DNA of 64,000 nt from an uncultured Gammaproteobacteria bacterium. Its GTDB lineage: Bacteria > Patescibacteriota > Microgenomatia > UBA12405. Each line of letters begins with the position of its first letter. Position 1 is the first letter of the stretch. The stretch is taken from the NCBI GenBank assembly GCA_964549165.1, contig CAZJUH010000002.1, positions 1,896-65,895 on the forward strand, written 5' to 3'. Below are positions 490 through 42,380 of the stretch, one piece after another. The notes below the pieces were generated by a model, which did no database searches, was not told the origin of the DNA, and saw only the letters and a program-made list of their open reading frames with translations. A program made the translations under genes and the position numbers.

Positions 490-768
490 ATGCCACTTTT
501 TGTAAAAGAAACCTCATCTAAGGGAGAGATTTGTGAATATACTCTAAATGATTTAGAGTACTCTTTTGTTACTGATTCCAATCAGGAAGTACAATTAACT
601 TTAGTAAGTAATCCTAAATTAGGCGGAGAAATAGAAACAAGGGAAGGGAAAAAATTTCACCTACCGTCTCTTATGGAAAATTCAAATCATTTACTCAATG
701 CTATTGAGTTTCGTTTTTTTAACAAAAAGGTTGAAATTCATTCTCTTGTTAAAGATACTAAAATTTAG
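490..768 (+). CDS. Hypothetical protein (92 aa)
   Basis: ORF lies downstream of a consensus promoter. No recognisable family. Confidence 0.4.
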   Translation: MPLFVKETSSKGEICEYTLNDLEYSFVTDSNQEVQLTLVSNPKLGGEIETREGKKFHLPSLMENSNHLLNAIEFRFFNKKVEIHSLVKDTKI

Positions 769-794
769 TTTATTTTTTACTGTTAAAATAACTC

Positions 795-2216
795 ATGGCT
801 AAATCACAGTTAAAGGATTTCAATACCAACCTCTCAGAATGGTTTACTGATGTTATTTTAAAATCAGAGCTTGCCGATTATGCCCCAGTTAAGGGCTGCA
901 TGATTATTCGTCCTTACGGCTATGCTCTTTGGGAGGGGATTCAGCAATTTTTAGATAAATTAATTAAGGAAAAAGGTGTTAAAAATGCCTATTTTCCGCT
1001 TTTTATCCCCATGCACTATTTGCAAAAAGAAAAAGAGCATGTCGAGGGCTTTTCTCCACAGCTGGCGGTGGTCACTATTGCTGGCGGTGAAGAGTTGACT
1101 GAGAAATTAGCTATTCGTCCCACTTCTGAAACCATCATATACGATATGTATAAAAAGTGGACATCGTCATGGCGCGATCTTCCAGTTTTAATTAACCAAT
1201 GGTGTAATATTGTCCGCTGGGAAAAAAGAACTTATCTATTTTTGAGAACTTCTGAATTTTTATGGCAAGAGGGTCACTGTGCCCATCTGACTCATGAAGA
1301 TTCAAATGAGATGGTGATATGGGCCTTAGATGCTTACGAAAAAACCTATCACGAATTAATGGCTATGTACGGAATCAAAGGTAAAAAAAGTCAATCAGAA
1401 AAATTTCCCGGTGCTGGTGATACCTATACTTTTGAATGTATGATGCCAAACGGCAAGGCTCTTCAGGCTTGTACTTCTCACGATCTTGGTCAAAATTTTT
1501 CCAAATCATTTGACTGGACCGTTCAGGATAAAAATGGTGAAAAAGCTTATCCTTGGCAAAATTCCTGGGGTCTATCAACAAGGGCTATCGGAGGTTTAAT
1601 TATGGCTCATGGTGATGAAAACGGCCTTAAACTGCCATCTCAAATTGCCCCCACTCAAATAGTCATTGTCCCCATACCTGGTCACGAAAAAGCCTTAAAT
1701 AAGGCCCAGGAAATTTTTTCTGATCTTAAAAAACAATTTAGAGTCGAAATAGACCTTGTTGACGGCGAAACTGCCGGCTTCAAATTTAACAAATGGGAAT
1801 TAAAAGGTATCCCTCTCAGACTTGAAATCGGAGACCGTGATGTCGCCAGTGACTCTGTTATTATTACTCGTCGAGATACCAGTGAAAAAATTACGGTAAA
1901 AAATGAAGATTGTAGTCTGAAGATTGAAGATTTACTAAAAGAAATTCAAAATAATTTATTTAATATTCACAAAAAATTTACCGAAGATCACACTTTTTCC
2001 ATTGATTCTTATGATGAATTTAAAAAAATTATGGACTCTTCTCGTGGTTTTATCAAGGCTCATTGGTGTGAAGACCCTCAGTGTGAAGCCGAAATAAAAA
2101 AAGACACTAAAGCTACTACTCGCTGTTTACCTCTTGATGCTCCAGAGGAAGAGGGGAAATGTATTCATTGTGGTCAGCCCTCTCATCACCGCTGGCTCTT
2201 TGCTTTGTCTTACTAA
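795..2216 (+). CDS. proS: Prolyl-tRNA synthetase, archaeal/eukaryotic-type class II, with a C-terminal Zn-binding motif
   Basis: Class II aaRS motifs are present, and the C-terminal CxxC...CIHCG tail is typical of archaeal-type ProRS. Confidence 0.9.
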   Translation: MAKSQLKDFNTNLSEWFTDVILKSELADYAPVKGCMIIRPYGYALWEGIQQFLDKLIKEKGVKNAYFPLFIPMHYLQKEKEHVEGFSPQLAVVTIAGGEELTEKLAIRPTSETIIYDMYKKWTSSWRDLPVLINQWCNIVRWEKRTYLFLRTSEFLWQEGHCAHLTHEDSNEMVIWALDAYEKTYHELMAMYGIKGKKSQSEKFPGAGDTYTFECMMPNGKALQACTSHDLGQNFSKSFDWTVQDKNGEKAYPWQNSWGLSTRAIGGLIMAHGDENGLKLPSQIAPTQIVIVPIPGHEKALNKAQEIFSDLKKQFRVEIDLVDGETAGFKFNKWELKGIPLRLEIGDRDVASDSVIITRRDTSEKITVKNEDCSLKIEDLLKEIQNNLFNIHKKFTEDHTFSIDSYDEFKKIMDSSRGFIKAHWCEDPQCEAEIKKDTKATTRCLPLDAPEEEGKCIHCGQPSHHRWLFALSY

Positions 2217-2220
2217 TTTT

Positions 2221-2254
2221 TTTTAGATTTTAGAATTTAGATTTTAGATTTTTC
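2221..2254. repeat. Tandem heptamer array (TTTTAGA x4, ending TTTAGATTTTTCC) immediately upstream of ftsK
   Basis: Seen directly. Related arrays occur at 5312-5331, 22521-22553 and 50964-51003. Confidence 0.5.
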
Positions 2255-2277
2255 CATTTTTACTCTATACTGTATTT

Positions 2278-4416
2278 ATGCCCCGCGGACGCAAGAAAAA
2301 TCGAATTCTCCCTACCCTAAAACTTAAGCCAGATACTGTCAAGTCAATTTTCTTCATCTTCTTTTTAATTTTGGCCATACTATCAGTATTTTCATTTCTT
2401 CAACAGGGGAGTATTGCTTCCGATGTAAACTTAATTTTAACTAAATATTTTGGGTGGGGTGCAGTTATGGTTCCCTTTTTATTTCTCCTTATCTCTTTTC
2501 TTTTTACAAAAGTTAAATCAGCTCTTCGCGAAGCCAATGTCTTTTTTGGTTTTTGTATTATGTTTTTTGCTCTTCTGGGTCTTTTCAAACAAGGATTTTT
2601 GGGTGCCTTCTTTTGGGAACAATTTTTAGCTTTATTTTCCGAAGTACTTACCTTTATTATTTTCTTTTTTGCTCTGATAGTCGGTTTTGTCGTTCTTTTT
2701 GATACTAATGTGGCTCAAATTTTTAAATTTTTTGCTCATCTTTTTCAAATGATTAAAAGATATTCGGTTGGCCAAAGCAATAAACTAAAAGATAAAAAAG
2801 CCAGAGAAATGGCTAAAAACCCCATCTATCAATCAGAAATGAATACCTCCTCTAGTTCTGAATTAAATCTAAATCGAGATAAAGATGTTTCAAAATCATC
2901 GTCAAAGGCTGATTTTGGAGTAGTCAATATTCCTCCCGTTATCAAAAATTCTTCTCCACTGACCTCTTCTGGCAATCAGACTTGGGTTTATCCCTCACTT
3001 TCAATTTTTGATAATACTCCCGGTGCCAAAGCAGATCGGGGAGATGTTCGTAAAAATGCTCAAATTATTGAGACAACATTAGAATCTTTCGGTATTACTG
3101 CTCGCGTTGCCGAAGTAAACGATAGTCCTTCTGTAACTCAATATGCCCTCGAGGTTTCTCTGGGGACAAAACTAGCCAAAATACTTTCTTTAAGCAACGA
3201 TCTAGCCATGGCCCTGGCTGCTCCTGGTGGCCAAATCAGAGTCGAAGCTCCCATTCCTGGAAGATCTCTTGTTGGTATTGAAATGCCAAACCGTTCTCTT
3301 GAAGTTGTCCCAATCAGGGCAATTTTGGAATCAGATATCATGAAAAATGCCAAAAGCAAAATTTCAGTTCCTCTTGGTCTTGATGTGGCTGGTCAGCCTA
3401 GAATTGCTGATATTTCCAAAATGCCTCACGTTTTAATTGCCGGTCAAACCGGCTCCGGAAAATCAATTTGTATTAATTCCTGGATTTCAACCCTACTTTT
3501 TCGAGCTTCTCCTGATGAAGTTCGTCTGATTATGGTGGATCCAAAACGGGTTGAACTTTCGCAGTACAATGGCATTCCCCATTTACTTACTCCTGTTATC
3601 GTTGAGCCAGAAAAAGTTGTTTCTGCCTTAAAATGGGCTGTTAATGAAATGGAGCATCGTTATAAGCTTTTTACCGAAGTTGGGGCAAAAAATATTGAAG
3701 GTTACAACAACATGTCAGGTTTTCAAGCTATTCCCTATATTTTGATTGTGATTGATGAGCTGGCCGAAATCATGCTTTTTTCTCCCGCCGAAGTTGAAGA
3801 CAATATCTGTCGTATTGCTCAAATGGCCCGGGCCGTCGGCATTCATTTAGTTTTAGCCACCCAGCGGCCATCAGTCAATATTATTACCGGTCTAATCAAG
3901 GCTAATATTCCAACTCGCATTGCCTTTGCTGTTGCCTCAATGACCGATTCTCGGGTCGTATTAGATACTCCAGGTGCCGAAAAATTACTTGGTCGGGGTG
4001 ACATGCTTTATATTCCTCCTGACTTGGCCAAGCCCGTCAGAATTCAGGGCTGTTTTATTTCCGATAAAGAAGTAAATCGCCTAATTGATTTTTTGAAAAC
4101 TCAGCGCAGTGGTGATTACAACGATGAAATCACAAAGCAGCCAGTTAGTAGTCCCAATTCAATTAGTAAAAATATGATGGTCAGTGATGGTGAGGAGCGC
4201 GATGCTGTCTTTGACGATGCCGTTAAATTAATTCAAGATACTGGCAAAGCGTCTGCCTCTTTTATGCAACGTCATTTAAAGCTTGGTTATGCCCGCGCCG
4301 CTAGAGTTCTTGATGAACTTCAAGCGGCTGGTATCGTTGGCCCAGTCAATGGTGCTAAGCCTCGAGAAATTTTAATTCCCCATAAAAGTTCTTCCGATAA
4401 TAATTTGGAAGAATAA
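2278..4416 (+). CDS. ftsK: DNA translocase FtsK/SpoIIIE
   Basis: N-terminal TM segments, Walker A GQTGSGKS, and a C-terminal gamma/winged-helix domain. Confidence 0.9.
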   Translation: MPRGRKKNRILPTLKLKPDTVKSIFFIFFLILAILSVFSFLQQGSIASDVNLILTKYFGWGAVMVPFLFLLISFLFTKVKSALREANVFFGFCIMFFALLGLFKQGFLGAFFWEQFLALFSEVLTFIIFFFALIVGFVVLFDTNVAQIFKFFAHLFQMIKRYSVGQSNKLKDKKAREMAKNPIYQSEMNTSSSSELNLNRDKDVSKSSSKADFGVVNIPPVIKNSSPLTSSGNQTWVYPSLSIFDNTPGAKADRGDVRKNAQIIETTLESFGITARVAEVNDSPSVTQYALEVSLGTKLAKILSLSNDLAMALAAPGGQIRVEAPIPGRSLVGIEMPNRSLEVVPIRAILESDIMKNAKSKISVPLGLDVAGQPRIADISKMPHVLIAGQTGSGKSICINSWISTLLFRASPDEVRLIMVDPKRVELSQYNGIPHLLTPVIVEPEKVVSALKWAVNEMEHRYKLFTEVGAKNIEGYNNMSGFQAIPYILIVIDELAEIMLFSPAEVEDNICRIAQMARAVGIHLVLATQRPSVNIITGLIKANIPTRIAFAVASMTDSRVVLDTPGAEKLLGRGDMLYIPPDLAKPVRIQGCFISDKEVNRLIDFLKTQRSGDYNDEITKQPVSSPNSISKNMMVSDGEERDAVFDDAVKLIQDTGKASASFMQRHLKLGYARAARVLDELQAAGIVGPVNGAKPREILIPHKSSSDNNLEE

Positions 4417-4421
4417 TCAAT

Positions 4422-5018
4422 ATGAAACGTGCTTCAACTATTCTCGAGTCTGCTCGCCTCGACCGGGAAATTGATTTTACTGATATTTGTAAAAAAACAA
4501 AAATTCCACTTCGCTATTTAATCGCCTTCGAAAATGAAAATACTAAAGATTTTCCCGAGGAGCCTTATTGTTCCCTAATGGTCAAGGACTATGCTGAGTT
4601 TTTAGGTTTAAATGGGGAAGAGCTTTTATCTCTATTTCGTCGCGATTATGATCGGCATCATCCCAATGTTGCCAAAAGTCGCTCCTTGTTTTCTTTAACC
4701 CCTCAATTTAGTTTTACCTTTTTTATTATTCTTCTCTCTCTATTTTTTGGTCTTTATTTAATCTCTGAATATTTAAAATTCAATCGCCCGCCTCATTTAG
4801 AAGTAAATTGGCCGGAGAATATTTCCGAGTCTTCAATTAAAATTTCCGGAAAAACTGATCCTGAGTCCACTGTTAAGATAAATGATTCTCTGGTCCTTGT
4901 TGATCTTGAGGGGAATTTTACCAAAGAACTTCAAATTTCTACACCTGAGGCTAAAATTATCATCGAAGCTAAATCTCCAGCTGGCAAAGTTACGATTGAT
5001 GAAAAAGTCCTAAAATAG
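4422..5018 (+). CDS. RodZ-like HTH (XRE) membrane protein
   Basis: N-terminal HTH, a single TM segment and a C-terminal beta-rich domain. Confidence 0.45.
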   Translation: MKRASTILESARLDREIDFTDICKKTKIPLRYLIAFENENTKDFPEEPYCSLMVKDYAEFLGLNGEELLSLFRRDYDRHHPNVAKSRSLFSLTPQFSFTFFIILLSLFFGLYLISEYLKFNRPPHLEVNWPENISESSIKISGKTDPESTVKINDSLVLVDLEGNFTKELQISTPEAKIIIEAKSPAGKVTIDEKVLK

Positions 5019-39555: not shown

Positions 39556-40011
39556 ATGGATATTTTATCTTCTTTAAACAAAACCACTACCAAGCAGTCC
39601 AAGCGTGTCGGTCGGGGGATTGGTTCTGGAGTCGGCGGTCACACTACTGGCCGTGGTGCCAAGGGAGATAATGTTAGGGGTCACAGCAAATTAACCTTTG
39701 ACGGCACAAAAATCAAAAAAGGTTGGTTAAAAAGATTACCATTCCTACGGGGAAAACATCGTTTATTGCCCCTAAATGATACCTATATTGTTTCTTTAAC
39801 CCAAATTAATTCCTGGTTTAAAACTGGTGAAATTGTTGAGAAAAAAACTATTTTCGAAAAAATCCTCAGGACTACCAAAAGAGATTTAACTAAAAAAATC
39901 AAAGTCTTGTCTACCGGCAATCTTGATAAAAAATTAACTTTTAAAGGTCTTGAGCTTTCGGAGAAAGCGTCTTCAAAAGTATTAGCCTCAGGTGGTAAGA
40001 TAGAGTCATGA
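39556..40011 (+). CDS. rplO: 50S ribosomal protein L15. It follows rpsE directly, so no rpmD (L30) gene is present.
   Basis: [19 protein letters not shown]. Confidence 0.9.
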
Positions 40012-41288
40012 ATTATCTGACAAAATCATTGTCCCTTTATAAAGAGGGTTTAAAATCTCCCTTGCTTCGAAAAAAAATATTATTTACTCTGGGTATCTTA
40101 GTTCTTTTTCGTCTGATTGCTCATATTCCGGTCCCTGGTGTTAACCTCGCTTTATTAAAATCTTTTTTTGCTCAAAATCAGCTTTTATCTCTTCTCGATA
40201 TTTTTTCTGGTGGTACTCTCGCCAATTTTTCTATTGCCGCTTTGGGACTAAATCCCTATATCAATGCTTCGATTATGCTCCAGCTTTTGGGTTTTGTCAT
40301 TCCCGAGCTTAAAGAACTCCAAAAAGAAGGGGAATATGGGCAGTCCAAATTAAATCAATACACCAGAATTATTACCATTCCTCTCTCTATCTTTCAATCT
40401 CTTGGAATGTACGGCATTTTAAAATCTCAAAATATTATTGGGCAGCAGTCTATTTTAGTTATTGTCGCCCTGATTGCTTCGATGGTCACTGGCACGATGA
40501 TTATGATTTTTCTTGGTGAATTAATTAATGAATTTGGAATTGGAAATGGTATTTCCGTTATGATTTTTGCTGGGATTATTTCTCGCTTACCTGTGTCTGC
40601 CATTCAGTCGCTAAGTCTTGCTGATTTTTCCAATCCTCAAACCCTATTCAATCTAATCTTGTTCTTGGCTCTAGTAGTGGCCATTATTTTTGCTGTCGTT
40701 ACTATTGAAGAAGCAGTGTTTAGGATTCCCGTATCTTACGCTAAAAGAGCTCAAACAACCTATCTTCCCATAAAAGTAAACGTCGCCGGTGTCATGCCGA
40801 TTATTTTTGCTGTTTCCCTTGTTTCCCTGCCTACTCTTTTAGGTCAAGCTTTGAGTCGAGTTGGCAATCAAGCTATCGCCACCTTTGCCCGTAATTTATC
40901 CTCTGCCTTTAGTGGGACTAGTGTTCTTTATTTACTTACCTATTTTGTCATGGTTATTGCCTTTACTTTTTTCTATTCTACTGTTGTTTTTAAACCAAAA
41001 GATGTTGCCGAAGAGCTTCGTAAATCAGGCGGTTTTATTCCTGGAATTCGTCCCGGGATAGCTACTGAAAAAAGACTGGAATATTTACTTTATCGGGTTG
41101 TTTTCATCGGTGCCTTCTTTTTAGCCATGATTGCCGTCATTCCTTCTGTCATTCAAAAAATAACCGGGATAACTTCACTTAGTATTGGCGGTACTTCCGT
41201 TTTGATTGTTGTTTCCGTTATTTTAGAGTTAAATCGTAAAATTGAAAACGTGGTTCAAATGTATAATTACGATAAACTAACTTACTAA
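40008..41288 (+). CDS. secY: Preprotein translocase subunit SecY
   Basis: Ten TM segments and SecY signature blocks. Confidence 0.95.
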
Positions 41289-41296
41289 AACCCTTT

Positions 41297-41331
41297 CCCC
41301 GATAAATCGGGGCTTTCCCCTTCAAAAAGGG
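41297..41331. repeat. GC-rich hairpins CCCCGATAAATCGGGG and CCCCTTCAAAAAGGG upstream of the DUF559 gene. The second is the inverted partner of 41748-41760.
   Basis: Seen directly. Confidence 0.45.
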
Positions 41332-41336
41332 AATTT

Positions 41337-41735
41337 ATGAAAATTAATAATAATTTACTTACTCAAAGAGGACACAATCCTTACCTTCTTGAGTTAAGAG
41401 AATTATCGAGAGTAAATCGTCAAAATCCAACTAAAGCTGAATTATTAATTTGGAACACGATTTTACGGAAAAAATATTTAGGCTATAAATTTCTGAGACA
41501 AAAACCATTAAATCAATTTATTCTTGATTTTTATTGCTCAAAATTATTACTAGACATTGAAATTGATGGAGATTCCCATCTTAATCAAAAAAATCATGAC
41601 GATGGTCGGGACGAAATTTTATCTAGTCTCGGAATTAAAACTATTAGGTATAATAATGAAGCAGTATTAATGACCTTAAATACCGTTATAGAAGATTTAA
41701 AGGTTCAAATTAATAATCGACAGGATGAAATATAA
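41337..41735 (+). CDS. DUF559 / Vsr-like (restriction-endonuclease fold) endonuclease-domain protein, inserted between secY and adk
   Basis: Conserved DUF559 pattern: a Lys near the N-terminus, FLRQKP...F.LDFYC..L..D.EIDG..H, and a C-terminal IRY.N. Confidence 0.7.
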   Translation: MKINNNLLTQRGHNPYLLELRELSRVNRQNPTKAELLIWNTILRKKYLGYKFLRQKPLNQFILDFYCSKLLLDIEIDGDSHLNQKNHDDGRDEILSSLGIKTIRYNNEAVLMTLNTVIEDLKVQINNRQDEI

Positions 41736-41747
41736 TTTAATTAATTG

Positions 41748-41777
41748 CCCTTTTGAAGGGAAATGTCCCGAAGGGAC
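41748..41777. repeat. Hairpins CCCTTTTGAAGGG and GTCCCGAAGGGAC downstream of the DUF559 gene
   Basis: Seen directly. The first is the reverse complement of the upstream CCCTTCAAAAAGGG apart from a 1-nt loop difference. Confidence 0.45.
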
Positions 41778-41789
41778 AAAGGGTTTTTA

Positions 41790-42380
41790 ATGTTAAATTT
41801 ATTTATCATTGGCCCGAGCGGCTGCGGCAAATCAACTCAAGCCAAGTTAATTGCGGAGAAATATAACCTAACCCATTTATCTATGGGCCAGCTTCTTCGA
41901 GATGAAATTGCCGCTGATAGTGGTTTTGGCGATGAAGCCAAATCTTATCTTGATAATGGTAAATTAGTTCCCGACGATTTAATTTTTGATATTTTAATTG
42001 CTAAACTAAACACCTTAAACAATCAAAATTTTATCATCGATGGTTTCCCCAGGGTTTTAAATCAAGGCAAATATATGGAATATTATTTAAAGAAAAAAGA
42101 CTTGCCATTTTCTTTGTTAATTCATTTAAGTGTTACTTTTGGGGAAATATCTACTCGTCGTGCCAAACTTGGCGTTGAGTTTCAAGATGAGAATAGAACT
42201 GACAATACTCCCGAGGCTATTGCTTCCCGTCAGCAATTTTACGATGAGGGTATCGCTCCCATTCGTGAATATTTTGAATCAAAGGGCCTTTTTGTTGACA
42301 TTGACGGCAACCACCCCGTTGAACCTATCTTTAGCGATATCTGTCAGAAAATTGATAAATTATTAATTAACTCTAAATGA
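41790..42380 (+). CDS. adk: Adenylate kinase
   Basis: P-loop GPSGCGKST and the LID region. Start chosen at MLNLFIIGP. Confidence 0.9.
   Translation: MLNLFIIGPSGCGKSTQAKLIAEKYNLTHLSMGQLLRDEIAADSGFGDEAKSYLDNGKLVPDDLIFDILIAKLNTLNNQNFIIDGFPRVLNQGKYMEYYLKKKDLPFSLLIHLSVTFGEISTRRAKLGVEFQDENRTDNTPEAIASRQQFYDEGIAPIREYFESKGLFVDIDGNHPVEPIFSDICQKIDKLLINSK

Follow-up and report, generated by a model that had tools for sequence, protein, structure and literature searches.

Variable genome regions are marked by BoxC/PIT/TMECO repeats (Bergler 1992 and Hoyne 2000, as cited in Bartholdy et al. 2015, PMC4666352), which fold into triplexes in vitro and which in E. coli are laid out as CCCTCTCCC-loop-GGGAGAGGG-TTA-GGGTGAGGG (PMC4666352). 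Bartholdy et al. stated that they never found a mobility-related gene close to a TMECO, and that it is unclear what causes the local instability. Besides these repeats, two further arrangements are already known, namely repetitive extragenic palindromic (REP) sequences paired with REP-associated tyrosine transposases (RAYTs), and free-standing Vsr-like homing endonuclease genes preceded by a hairpin that hides the ribosome-binding site (Dassa et al., PMC2677866). Here we describe a locus that shares features with all three. It lies in a stretch of 64,000 nucleotides (nt) of contig CAZJUH010000002.1 (assembly GCA_964549165.1, positions 1,896 to 65,895), hereafter the window, where a DUF559 nuclease gene bounded by two inverted, triplex-type end modules is wedged between secY and adk. 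We consider it on balance probable that this is a selfish, horizontally mobile cassette of about 500 bp, in which the nuclease and its modules act as one functional unit that spreads by recombination.

Like BoxC/PIT/TMECO repeats, the end modules are built of three blocks, that is a pyrimidine arm, a purine arm that pairs with it and a third block in which the pyrimidine arm is mirrored. They share with these repeats an intergenic position in either orientation, an occurrence as single copies or inverted pairs, and a link with local genome variability. They differ in that the second loop is a GC hairpin of 13-30 nt rather than 3 nt, in that the blocks, of 5-7 triplets, are smaller and have a higher A/T content, and in that the window has two copies alone, both bounding a gene, instead of many dispersed ones; moreover, the earlier publications describe no mobility or nuclease gene that goes with the repeats. 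With RAYTs, REP sequences and REPINs (REP doublets forming hairpins), the locus has in common a single-copy nuclease gene between inverted copies of a structured repeat, a conserved single-stranded head before the hairpin, and a repeat of which gene-less copies exist too, in the form of solos, inverted doublets and alternating arrays. However, the cassette enzyme has a PD-(D/E)XK (Vsr) fold and not an HUH/Y1 one, the module is a double hairpin with triplex potential and not a simple palindrome headed by GTAG, and dispersal was not seen in this genome. Vsr-like (EDxHD) homing endonucleases such as I-Bth0305I (PMC2677866, PMC3239194) resemble the cassette in their catalytic fold, in a free-standing gene wedged between host coding regions, in the upstream hairpin hiding the ribosome-binding site, and in a patchy presence at one conserved site with co-transferred flanks. 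Unlike those of the I-Bth0305I type, the cassette protein has 132 amino acids and no N-terminal DNA-binding extension, its gene sits between two complete genes rather than in an intron, an intein or a fractured gene, and it has inverted end modules that are absent from those elements. Finally, terminal inverted repeats are a feature shared with insertion sequences and miniature inverted-repeat transposable elements (MITEs).

An intact DUF559 gene between inverted modules

The host gene upstream of the cassette is secY (40008-41288, + strand; Pfam SecY, E-value 1.4e-96) and the one downstream is adk (41790-42380, +; Pfam ADK, E 3.3e-36). The SecY protein is 97% identical to that of Candidatus Shapirobacteria UBA4809, a metagenome-assembled genome (MAG), and the window comes, judged by its sequence, from a Candidatus Shapirobacteria genome (Microgenomates, candidate phyla radiation or CPR). 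The left end module (41286-41336, +) was read from the sequence and recovered by a covariance model (58.8 bits), by folding, which gave two local hairpins, and by a triplex-motif scan. Its first bases overlap the secY stop codon TAA (41286-41288). It comprises a pyrimidine head TAAAACCCTTT (41286-41296, +), hairpin 1 CCCCGATAAATCGGGG (41297-41312, +), a CTTT linker and hairpin 2 CCCCTTCAAAAAGGG (41317-41331, +), the purine arm of which, AAGGGA, lies 5 nt upstream of the nuclease ATG. The intact gene (41337-41735, +) encodes a DUF559/Vsr-fold PD-(D/E)XK nuclease of 132 amino acids (Pfam PF04480, E 2.7e-25). Behind it, the right end module (41736-41789, -) is an inverted copy of the left one, identified by an inverted-repeat search with a significance test, by the covariance model (55.5 bits at 41741-41790, -) and by the triplex scan; on the - strand it runs from head AAAAACCCTTT through hairpin 1 GTCCCTTCGGGAC to hairpin 2 CCCTTCAAAAGGG. 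On the + strand it carries AAAGGG (41778-41783), 6 nt upstream of the adk ATG at 41790 (MLNLFIIGPSGCGK), which is the adk start by homology. The window adk begins M-L-N-L-F, and the second codon kept by all empty-site relatives is missing. The GC content of the open reading frame (ORF) is 27%, versus 38% for the window.

The original prediction for this stretch, made from its letters, had proposed a 132-residue DUF559/Vsr-fold gene between secY and adk, which the PF04480 match and the coordinates confirm. The four GC hairpins that it reported around the gene were all found where they had been quoted, the downstream two being CCCTTTTGAAGGG (41748-41760) and GTCCCGAAGGGAC (41765-41777). The upstream and downstream sequences that it gave as reverse complements of each other differ by one extra A. 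As for the likeness to terminal inverted repeats, the repeat is longer than had been noted: the spacers 41289-41336 and 41736-41789 are mutual inverted repeats over nearly their whole length, with a 36-nt stretch that is 81% complementary and, farthest out, AAAACCCTTT/AAAGGGTTTT. The local alignment of the two spacers scored 33, a value reached by none of 5000 base shuffles (mean 11.8, maximum 26) and by none of 5000 random window pairs with the same spacing (mean 12.1, maximum 27).

The nuclease ORF matched PF04480 with 88.8 bits against a cut-off of 20.6, with 105 of the 109 profile positions covered, and found no convincing match to any other family. An identical protein is present in the searched protein collection as P0001 (P-numbers denote protein homologues). 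Loss of catalytic residues, which had been named beforehand as the mark of a pseudogene, was not observed: D64, E75, D77, H81, D88, R91 and R104, which are invariant or nearly so in 120 homologues, are all kept in an intact frame. In addition, the ratio of nonsynonymous to synonymous substitution rates (dN/dS) between cassettes was 0.05-0.16, so the ORF is under purifying selection.

The AlphaFold2 model of the protein (predicted local distance difference test, pLDDT, 84.6) has only two short helices before its core. Foldseek returned 3HRL as best match (E 1.2e-6, root-mean-square deviation 2.0 Å, template-modelling (TM) score 0.88 normalised to the target), and as second-best PDB match 3R3P, the catalytic domain of the homing endonuclease I-Bth0305I (probability 1.0, TM 0.69-0.70, 21% identity); E. 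coli Vsr (1VSR) was matched weakly (E 0.37). At the sequence level, phmmer against structures reached 3HRL alone (E 2.5e-14) and did not reach 3R3P. Vsr, DUF559, 3HRL and 3R3P have been placed in one PD-(D/E)XK group (Steczkiewicz et al., PMC3424549). Since the ORF had no Pfam Vsr match and no Dcm-type or other cytosine methyltransferase gene adjoins it, its neighbours being secY and adk, it does not represent a Vsr repair system. E. coli YcjD and N. gonorrhoeae NGO0050 (PDB 3HRL) belong to the same Pfam family and their genes also have flanking triplex-type motifs, but they are only 30-34% identical to the window protein, and neither has an assigned function or a described genomic behaviour. 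A phage origin was rejected, as viral contigs scanned with two end patterns gave unrelated hairpins or nothing, and PHROGs and PADLOC gave weak partial matches alone.

Empty sites and exchange at the secY-adk junction

A SecY scan with one genome per species yielded 80 loci (L-numbers denote loci retrieved for comparison, WIN the window), among which 24 Shapirobacteria-type loci span the junction. In 13 of these 24 the junction is empty (secY TAA, 0-5 nt, adk ATG), as in L002, where it reads ...ACTTATTAAAATGCCATTAAATC..., and in four of them the same place is taken by a DUF559 gene that has ends like those in the window (L008, L012, L013 and the truncated L019). L016 has a right-end module alone, beside a nucleotidyltransferase-like ORF. 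For every occupied genome there is a relative with a closely similar SecY protein and an empty junction: WIN and L081 versus L002 (95-97% identity), L012 versus L014 (96%) and L008 versus L025 (96%). Cassettes with the same ends at secY-adk were found in the other lineages L008, L012, L013, L081, L087, L090 and L098. The closest homologues of the nuclease, 92%, 86% and 65% identical, are on 11, 3 and 12 independent contigs, respectively, all at secY-adk and all with the same ends, which excludes an assembly artefact. Truncated genes, remnants and nested modules are also present (L019, L013, L016, L098, L102).

The nuclease phylogeny disagrees with the host phylogeny. First, the hosts of L087 and L090 have SecY proteins that are 96% identical and nucleases that are only 61% identical, while L087 and the window share 86% identity in the nuclease and 84% in SecY. 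Along the nucleotide sequence, L087 and L090 are 89% identical at the secY 3' end, 94% in the left module, 70% in the ORF, 67% in the right module and 79% at the adk 5' end; evidently, the ORF and the right end have been replaced and the left module retained. Second, the identities of SecY and Adk to those of the window are discordant (78% and 94% in L011, 80% and 87% in L009, 88% and 64% in L006), which makes the junction a recombination breakpoint. Third, in WIN, L081, L087, L090 and L008, whose hosts are divergent, the adk gene after the cassette starts ATG TTA AAT (M-L-N), while all empty alleles read ATG NNN TTA AAT, that is with adk codon 2 kept. The shared loss of this codon indicates that the cassette moves with the first bases of adk, and such a co-moving marker argues against fresh transposition and for homologous recombination, be it allelic replacement or homing. 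Also, because codon 2 is present in the empty alleles, these are not simple deletions of the present cassettes. Together, these comparisons show a cassette that has been gained, lost and exchanged among close relatives.

The original prediction had called the gene a small mobile or homing-type endonuclease cassette and had suggested looking for an empty site in related genomes and for other DUF559 copies with the same flanking hairpins. Both exist, the former even in relatives with 95-97% identical SecY, the latter at secY-adk and at other junctions described below, and the empty junctions, the patchy recurrence and the disagreement between cassette and host trees all support that call.

The discordance between SecY and Adk extends to genomes with an empty site and points to frequent recombination at or near the junction. 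The secY-adk junction of Shapirobacteria is moreover a hotspot for other small inserts. At L016:5281-5929 the nucleotidyltransferase-like ORF is followed by the residual right-end module; NUDIX-like ORFs lie at the junction in L017:5281-5742 and L020:5281-5745, and an ORF for a membrane-like protein of 65 amino acids in L023:5299-5496; L018:5282-5436 and L019:5282-6199 share another hairpin repeat (GTAGAGACGCC...GGCGTCTCTAC). On the other side of adk, the window gene overlaps infA directly (42377-42380) with no map gene between, whereas in the closest relatives L002 (5865-8083) and L083 (1526-3896) adk is followed by genes for a ferredoxin-like protein and an aminotransferase, and in L083 also for a methyltransferase; gene order 3' of adk is therefore also fluid in this lineage.

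Structure and triplex potential of the modules

From the outside in, a module of about 48-50 nt consists of the head (T)AAACCC(C)TYT, hairpin 1, a short linker and hairpin 2, YYTCCCC-TT(C/G)AAAA-GGGGARR. The sequence of hairpin 1 varies with its pairing kept, often around TTCG or TACG loops. Modules were aligned with a hand-built hidden Markov model and then with a covariance model; a MAFFT alignment was rejected because it put hairpin 1 one column off for the head type with three C. In the covariance-model alignment of 118 copies, which is fitted to the model so that pair counts lean towards the structure, 87% of cells were paired and the covariation score was 0.262, versus 0.116 in shuffled alignments (0 of 500 as high) and at most 0.098 with slid partners. 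Left modules share 75-94% nucleotide identity between cassettes with ORFs that are 65-92% identical, and modules are as conserved as, or more conserved than, the surrounding coding sequence. These data show that the ends of the cassette are selected structures.

The head mirrors the 5' arm of hairpin 2 (for example CCCCTCT versus TCTCCCC), so that it could pair with the purine arm (GGGGAGA) as the third strand, in parallel orientation. Read on the complementary strand, the module is laid out like a class II purine-motif intrastrand triplex, as are the TMECO/BoxC/PIT repeats of E. coli. With the caveat that kinship of the copies inflates both counts, in 83 of 117 modules the head has a C-run as long as the arm's G-run (37 ± 4.5 when shuffled; 0 of 5000), and the bases after the runs match, T to A and C to G, at 218 of 351 positions (167 ± 6 when shuffled; 0 of 5000). 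The matched types are many and distinct, namely C3+TTT with G3 or G4+AAT or AAA, C4+TCT with G4+AGA, C4+TCC with G4+AGG, C3+TTC with G3+AAG, and C5+TCT with G5+AGA. A triplex-motif scan over the 64 kb found both modules of the window, and two other matches that look spurious. Thus, the module has the makings of a potential intrastrand triplex of the BoxC/PIT/TMECO kind.

All DUF559 cassettes examined have a hairpin directly before the nuclease ATG. We infer that hairpin 2 of the left module sequesters the Shine-Dalgarno-like AAGGGA of the nuclease, and that the right module supplies the AAAGGG upstream of the adk start. Rfam has no family matching the modules, either in the window or in 13 loci. 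An intrinsic terminator was rejected, as the modules have no T-run and lie in either orientation to the neighbouring genes (15 opposite/opposite, 12 opposite/same, 10 same/same and 8 same/opposite). PIT elements likewise have neither terminator nor promoter activity according to the work cited in PMC4666352. For the 541-nt transcript, folding predicted a long-range RNA stem that loops out the ORF (z -3.8). Such a stem is a possibility; it was rejected as a requirement because solo modules keep the head though partnerless, and because the hairpin 2 loops at the two ends of L013 are not mutually complementary.

The right module of the window also contains an ATG at 41763 (GGGAAATGTCCC) in frame with adk, which would add 9 residues. 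An in-module ATG in frame with adk and with no stop between was seen in the window, L081 (3520), L090 (2711), L008 and L012, and in L087 a stop separates the two. Gene callers sometimes place the adk start at this ATG (9-12 additional residues). The frame may be maintained so that stray initiation still gives Adk.

Modules with and without a nuclease gene

When the covariance model was run over the 64 kb with filters off, it returned the two copies of the cassette alone; as both were in its training set, the informative part is that nothing else scores (next best 8.4 bits). Over about 600 kb of Microgenomates secY loci, modules are limited to secY-adk, beside DUF559 genes or their remnants, except in L020. 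Solo modules were observed at adk-infA, with no DUF559 gene there, in L020:6740-6798 (-) and L123:817-865 (-).

A metagenome scan with a module-derived pattern gave at least 120 loci, and returned many low-GC contigs with the full module architecture. Features that the pattern did not demand were present as well, that is a head followed by CTCT, a gap occupied by a GC hairpin and an extension TCT/AGA, and the covariance model recovered 118 module copies among the matches listed. All copies are intergenic, in either orientation relative to their neighbours. Modules without a gene occur as solos, as left-right doublets (L124, L167, L216 and L100, and also L013 and L098), as right-left doublets (L120, L190, L191, L197) and as tandem arrays (L177), and other metagenome contigs have up to 4 copies in 13 kb. 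Among the 120 matches listed, the retrieved DNA included a DUF559 gene in 8, and 7 of those genes adjoin modules. In L117 and L202, a nuclease 37% identical to P0020 lies inside an array of units of about 230 bp, each bounded by a left and a right module, so arranged that the heads, and not hairpin 2, face the gene. Homologues that are 53-57% identical to the window protein sit at other junctions, namely dnaJ-nusA, frr-rseP and beside tRNA-Cys, all with modules or their remains.

At L102:2831-3000, the intact cassette at dnaJ-nusA is preceded by the remnant of an earlier copy (3' end of the gene plus right module). L102 and L016, with its lone right module at secY-adk, are on one 461-kb contig (Hainich H52 MAG), which suggests cassette turnover at several junctions within one lineage. 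Another solo module comes directly after the 5S rRNA gene of L150 (4630-4683), in a stretch (490-4683) that also holds a 23S rRNA gene, in which 3144-3343 matches a group I intron.

DUF559 genes and triplex motifs outside the CPR

When the window protein was searched by tblastn against plasmid records, of which some are mislabelled chromosomes, DUF559 genes came up in cyanobacteria, Deinococcus, Neisseria, alphaproteobacteria and gammaproteobacteria. Stringent triplex motifs (stem of at least 7) occur no more than 700 nt from the gene at 7 of 8 DUF559 loci: E. coli ycjD and those of Synechocystis, N. gonorrhoeae, Deinococcus, Azospirillum, Sphingobium and Photobacterium. At four such loci the motif density was 1.2-4.2 per kb, versus 0-0.08 in 50-kb control stretches of the same replicons (8 matches in 200 kb). 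In E. coli, Deinococcus and Photobacterium, 3 nt separate the head from the duplex. In Deinococcus psychrotolerans the DUF559 gene lies between paaD and paaZ of the paa operon and is flanked by near-perfect inverted repeats of about 50 nt with a motif in each, and copies of the module alone are present elsewhere on Deinococcus plasmids. The motif array of Photobacterium has the loop TTGAAAA, as in CPR modules. Together, these data show a physical association of DUF559 genes with triplex-type modules in bacteria ranging from the CPR to E. coli.

On the Pseudanabaena galeata plasmid pPg_02 (L254, 151946-156811), an ORF of 4.9 kb, which bears the annotation 'DUF559 domain-containing protein', has at least 9 triplex-type motifs, in both orientations, within 1.7 kb. 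Rather than one protein, this ORF may represent modules and nuclease remnants in an array that was mis-called.

In E. coli K-12, ycjD is the sole DUF559 match to that gene in the genome. TMECO no. 9 lies 168 nt downstream of ycjD and is preceded by a duplicate of about 45 nt of the ycjD 3' end, and a degenerate triplex motif overlaps the ycjD stop codon. Upstream, L252:2030-2840 (E. coli K-12, 1351029-1351839) shows a hairpin with a 17-bp stem (TCACCTCATTCTGACAA...TTGTCAGAATGAGGTGA), with GAGGTGA in its 3' arm beside the annotated start, which suggests that the ycjD ribosome-binding site is sequestered as in the CPR cassettes.

The spacer between fabI and sapF holds ycjD in phylogroups A, B1 and C and in ST69 and ST182, and eefRABCD elsewhere (PMC12817139). 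Over 5426 complete E. coli genomes, ycjD is present in 3378. The strains with published TMECO counts were placed in the phylogroups to which we presume they belong, and all counts by phylogroup rest on this placement. According to Table S7 of PMC4666352, which gives the counts per strain, 13-30 TMECOs are found in 29 strains of phylogroups A, B1 and C, 1-2 in the 16 B2 strains with a listed count (strain 536 being blank), 6-7 in phylogroup F, 10-11 in phylogroup E and 13 in strain 042 (phylogroup D). Thus, there are 13-30 TMECOs in phylogroups with ycjD and 1-13 in those without, and the split into '29 strains with more and 27 with fewer' made in PMC4666352 coincides with presence or absence of the gene.

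Discussion

Taking the cassette as one functional unit, we propose that the nuclease would recognise the folded module, in single-stranded or supercoiled DNA, and nick at or beside it. The break would then be repaired by recombination, and the cassette copied into homologous empty junctions, for example after DNA uptake. Repair might occasionally seed modules without a gene, doublets and arrays, much as RAYT transposases relate to REP and REPIN. The modules would also limit the harm done to the operon, with left hairpin 2 hiding the AAGGGA of the nuclease and the right module giving adk its AAAGGG. We favour recognition of the module over recognition of the junction because paralogues at unrelated junctions keep the same small protein, and the modules are the constant DNA feature. 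A wider claim, that DUF559 nucleases are the cognate enzymes of BoxC/PIT/TMECO repeats throughout bacteria, nicking the folded module as a PD-(D/E)XK counterpart of the RAYT-REP pair, seems to us tenable, somewhat short of probable.

Several points weigh against these proposals. To our knowledge, no DUF559 protein has a demonstrated nuclease activity or substrate. Triplex formation is a potential alone, a G-to-A change weakens hairpin 2 of the left module in the window, and for TMECO no stable triplex was found in vivo (Bartholdy et al., PMC4666352). There is no consistent target-site duplication across seven cassettes: TTAA is on both sides in L012, CTAA and TTAA are in the window, and the five others have no duplication. 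Within the window the module is limited to the cassette, with no REP-like dispersal. The metagenome sample was chosen by a pattern derived from the module, and most of its gene-less modules have no DUF559 gene within the few kb retrieved. Furthermore, close homologues (65-92% identity) are confined to one site, which fits a site-specific homing enzyme or plain recombination within conserved flanks equally. Finally, the E. coli correlation is one phylogenetic split and hence confounded, and phylogroups D and E keep 10-13 TMECOs without ycjD.

The main rival, which we hold to be unlikely and still worth serious attention, is a classical free-standing homing endonuclease that would cut the empty secY-adk junction and be copied there by double-strand-break repair, with the modules serving expression control alone, that is sequestration of the ribosome-binding site, insulation and a new ribosome-binding site for adk. 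The junction sequence is indeed highly conserved, all 61-92% identical homologues with an examined context are at that same junction, and the lost adk codon 2 is co-transferred as in co-conversion. After 3HRL, the fold is nearest to I-Bth0305I, and the hairpin before every cassette examined has its parallel in known Vsr-like homing genes (PMC2677866). However, a protein of 132 amino acids has no extra DNA-binding domain, and the paralogues at dnaJ-nusA and frr-rseP, at 53-57% identity, keep the same conserved surface, with modules constant across sites. The secY side of the L087 cassette matches its sister L090, so any co-conversion tract would have to be very short. Above all, purely regulatory modules would leave unexplained the downstream copy in inverted orientation, the solos, doublets and arrays that have no gene, the mirror covariation between head and arm, and the geometry of L202 with heads facing the gene.

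Both remaining rivals, vertical inheritance and transposition, fit worse than homing. The first would have a resident, domesticated host gene, for a repair or processing nuclease acting on triplex or hairpin structures or on mismatches, that is inherited vertically and repeatedly lost, the flanking motifs being its regulatory or substrate sites. RAYTs themselves are debated as domesticated genes, and purifying selection as strong as the dN/dS values indicate, together with one co-oriented copy per 64 kb within an essential operon, would suit such a gene. So would the stable retention of ycjD in E. coli phylogroups A, B1 and C (PMC12817139). Yet close relatives have clean empty junctions with adk codon 2, a codon that deletion of the cassette could not restore, and the sister hosts L087 and L090 carry strongly diverged nucleases. 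The low GC content of the ORF, the occurrence of truncated genes, remnants and nested modules, and the missing Dcm-type methyltransferase neighbour, unlike in the Vsr system, speak in the same direction, and we consider domestication improbable.

A cut-and-paste or copy-paste transposon, with the inverted repeats as ends, DUF559 as transposase and the gene-less doublets as MITEs, is very improbable in our eyes: sharp element ends (TAAAACCC ... GGGTTTTA), the left-right doublets of L216, L124, L167, L100, L013 and L098, cassettes at several unrelated junctions, the near-perfect Deinococcus repeat and the TTAA and CTAA/TTAA borders of L012 and the window would agree with it, but the seven cassettes lack a consistent target-site duplication, the travelling adk marker argues for allelic replacement, close relatives are never at different sites, hairpin 1 differs between the two ends of one cassette, and we know of no PD-(D/E)XK protein acting as a lone transposase, TnsA of Tn7 needing TnsB.

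To return to the mobile cassette, we found in the open-access literature neither a description of a DUF559 cassette with inverted triplex-type ends in a ribosomal-protein operon nor a link between DUF559 and BoxC/PIT; the link between DUF559 and BoxC/PIT/TMECO repeats is thus new as far as that literature shows. The cassette is the simplest form of this coupling, one nuclease gene between two inverted modules, and the same coupling is seen in E. coli, Neisseria, Deinococcus, cyanobacteria and alphaproteobacteria. The chance is substantial that the cassette points to a general partnership of DUF559 with such modules, which can be tested in E. coli. If true, this would give a function to DUF559, a very large nuclease family that includes YcjD of E. 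coli and for which a structure has been solved (3HRL), and an enzyme to orphan repeats known since 1992, one that would drive their spread, their maintenance and local genome instability. For the biology of the CPR, the cassette suggests that, even where the genome is highly reduced, a selfish element can inhabit the spc operon, which it apparently leaves unbroken, and travel between lineages as an allele of the secY-adk junction.

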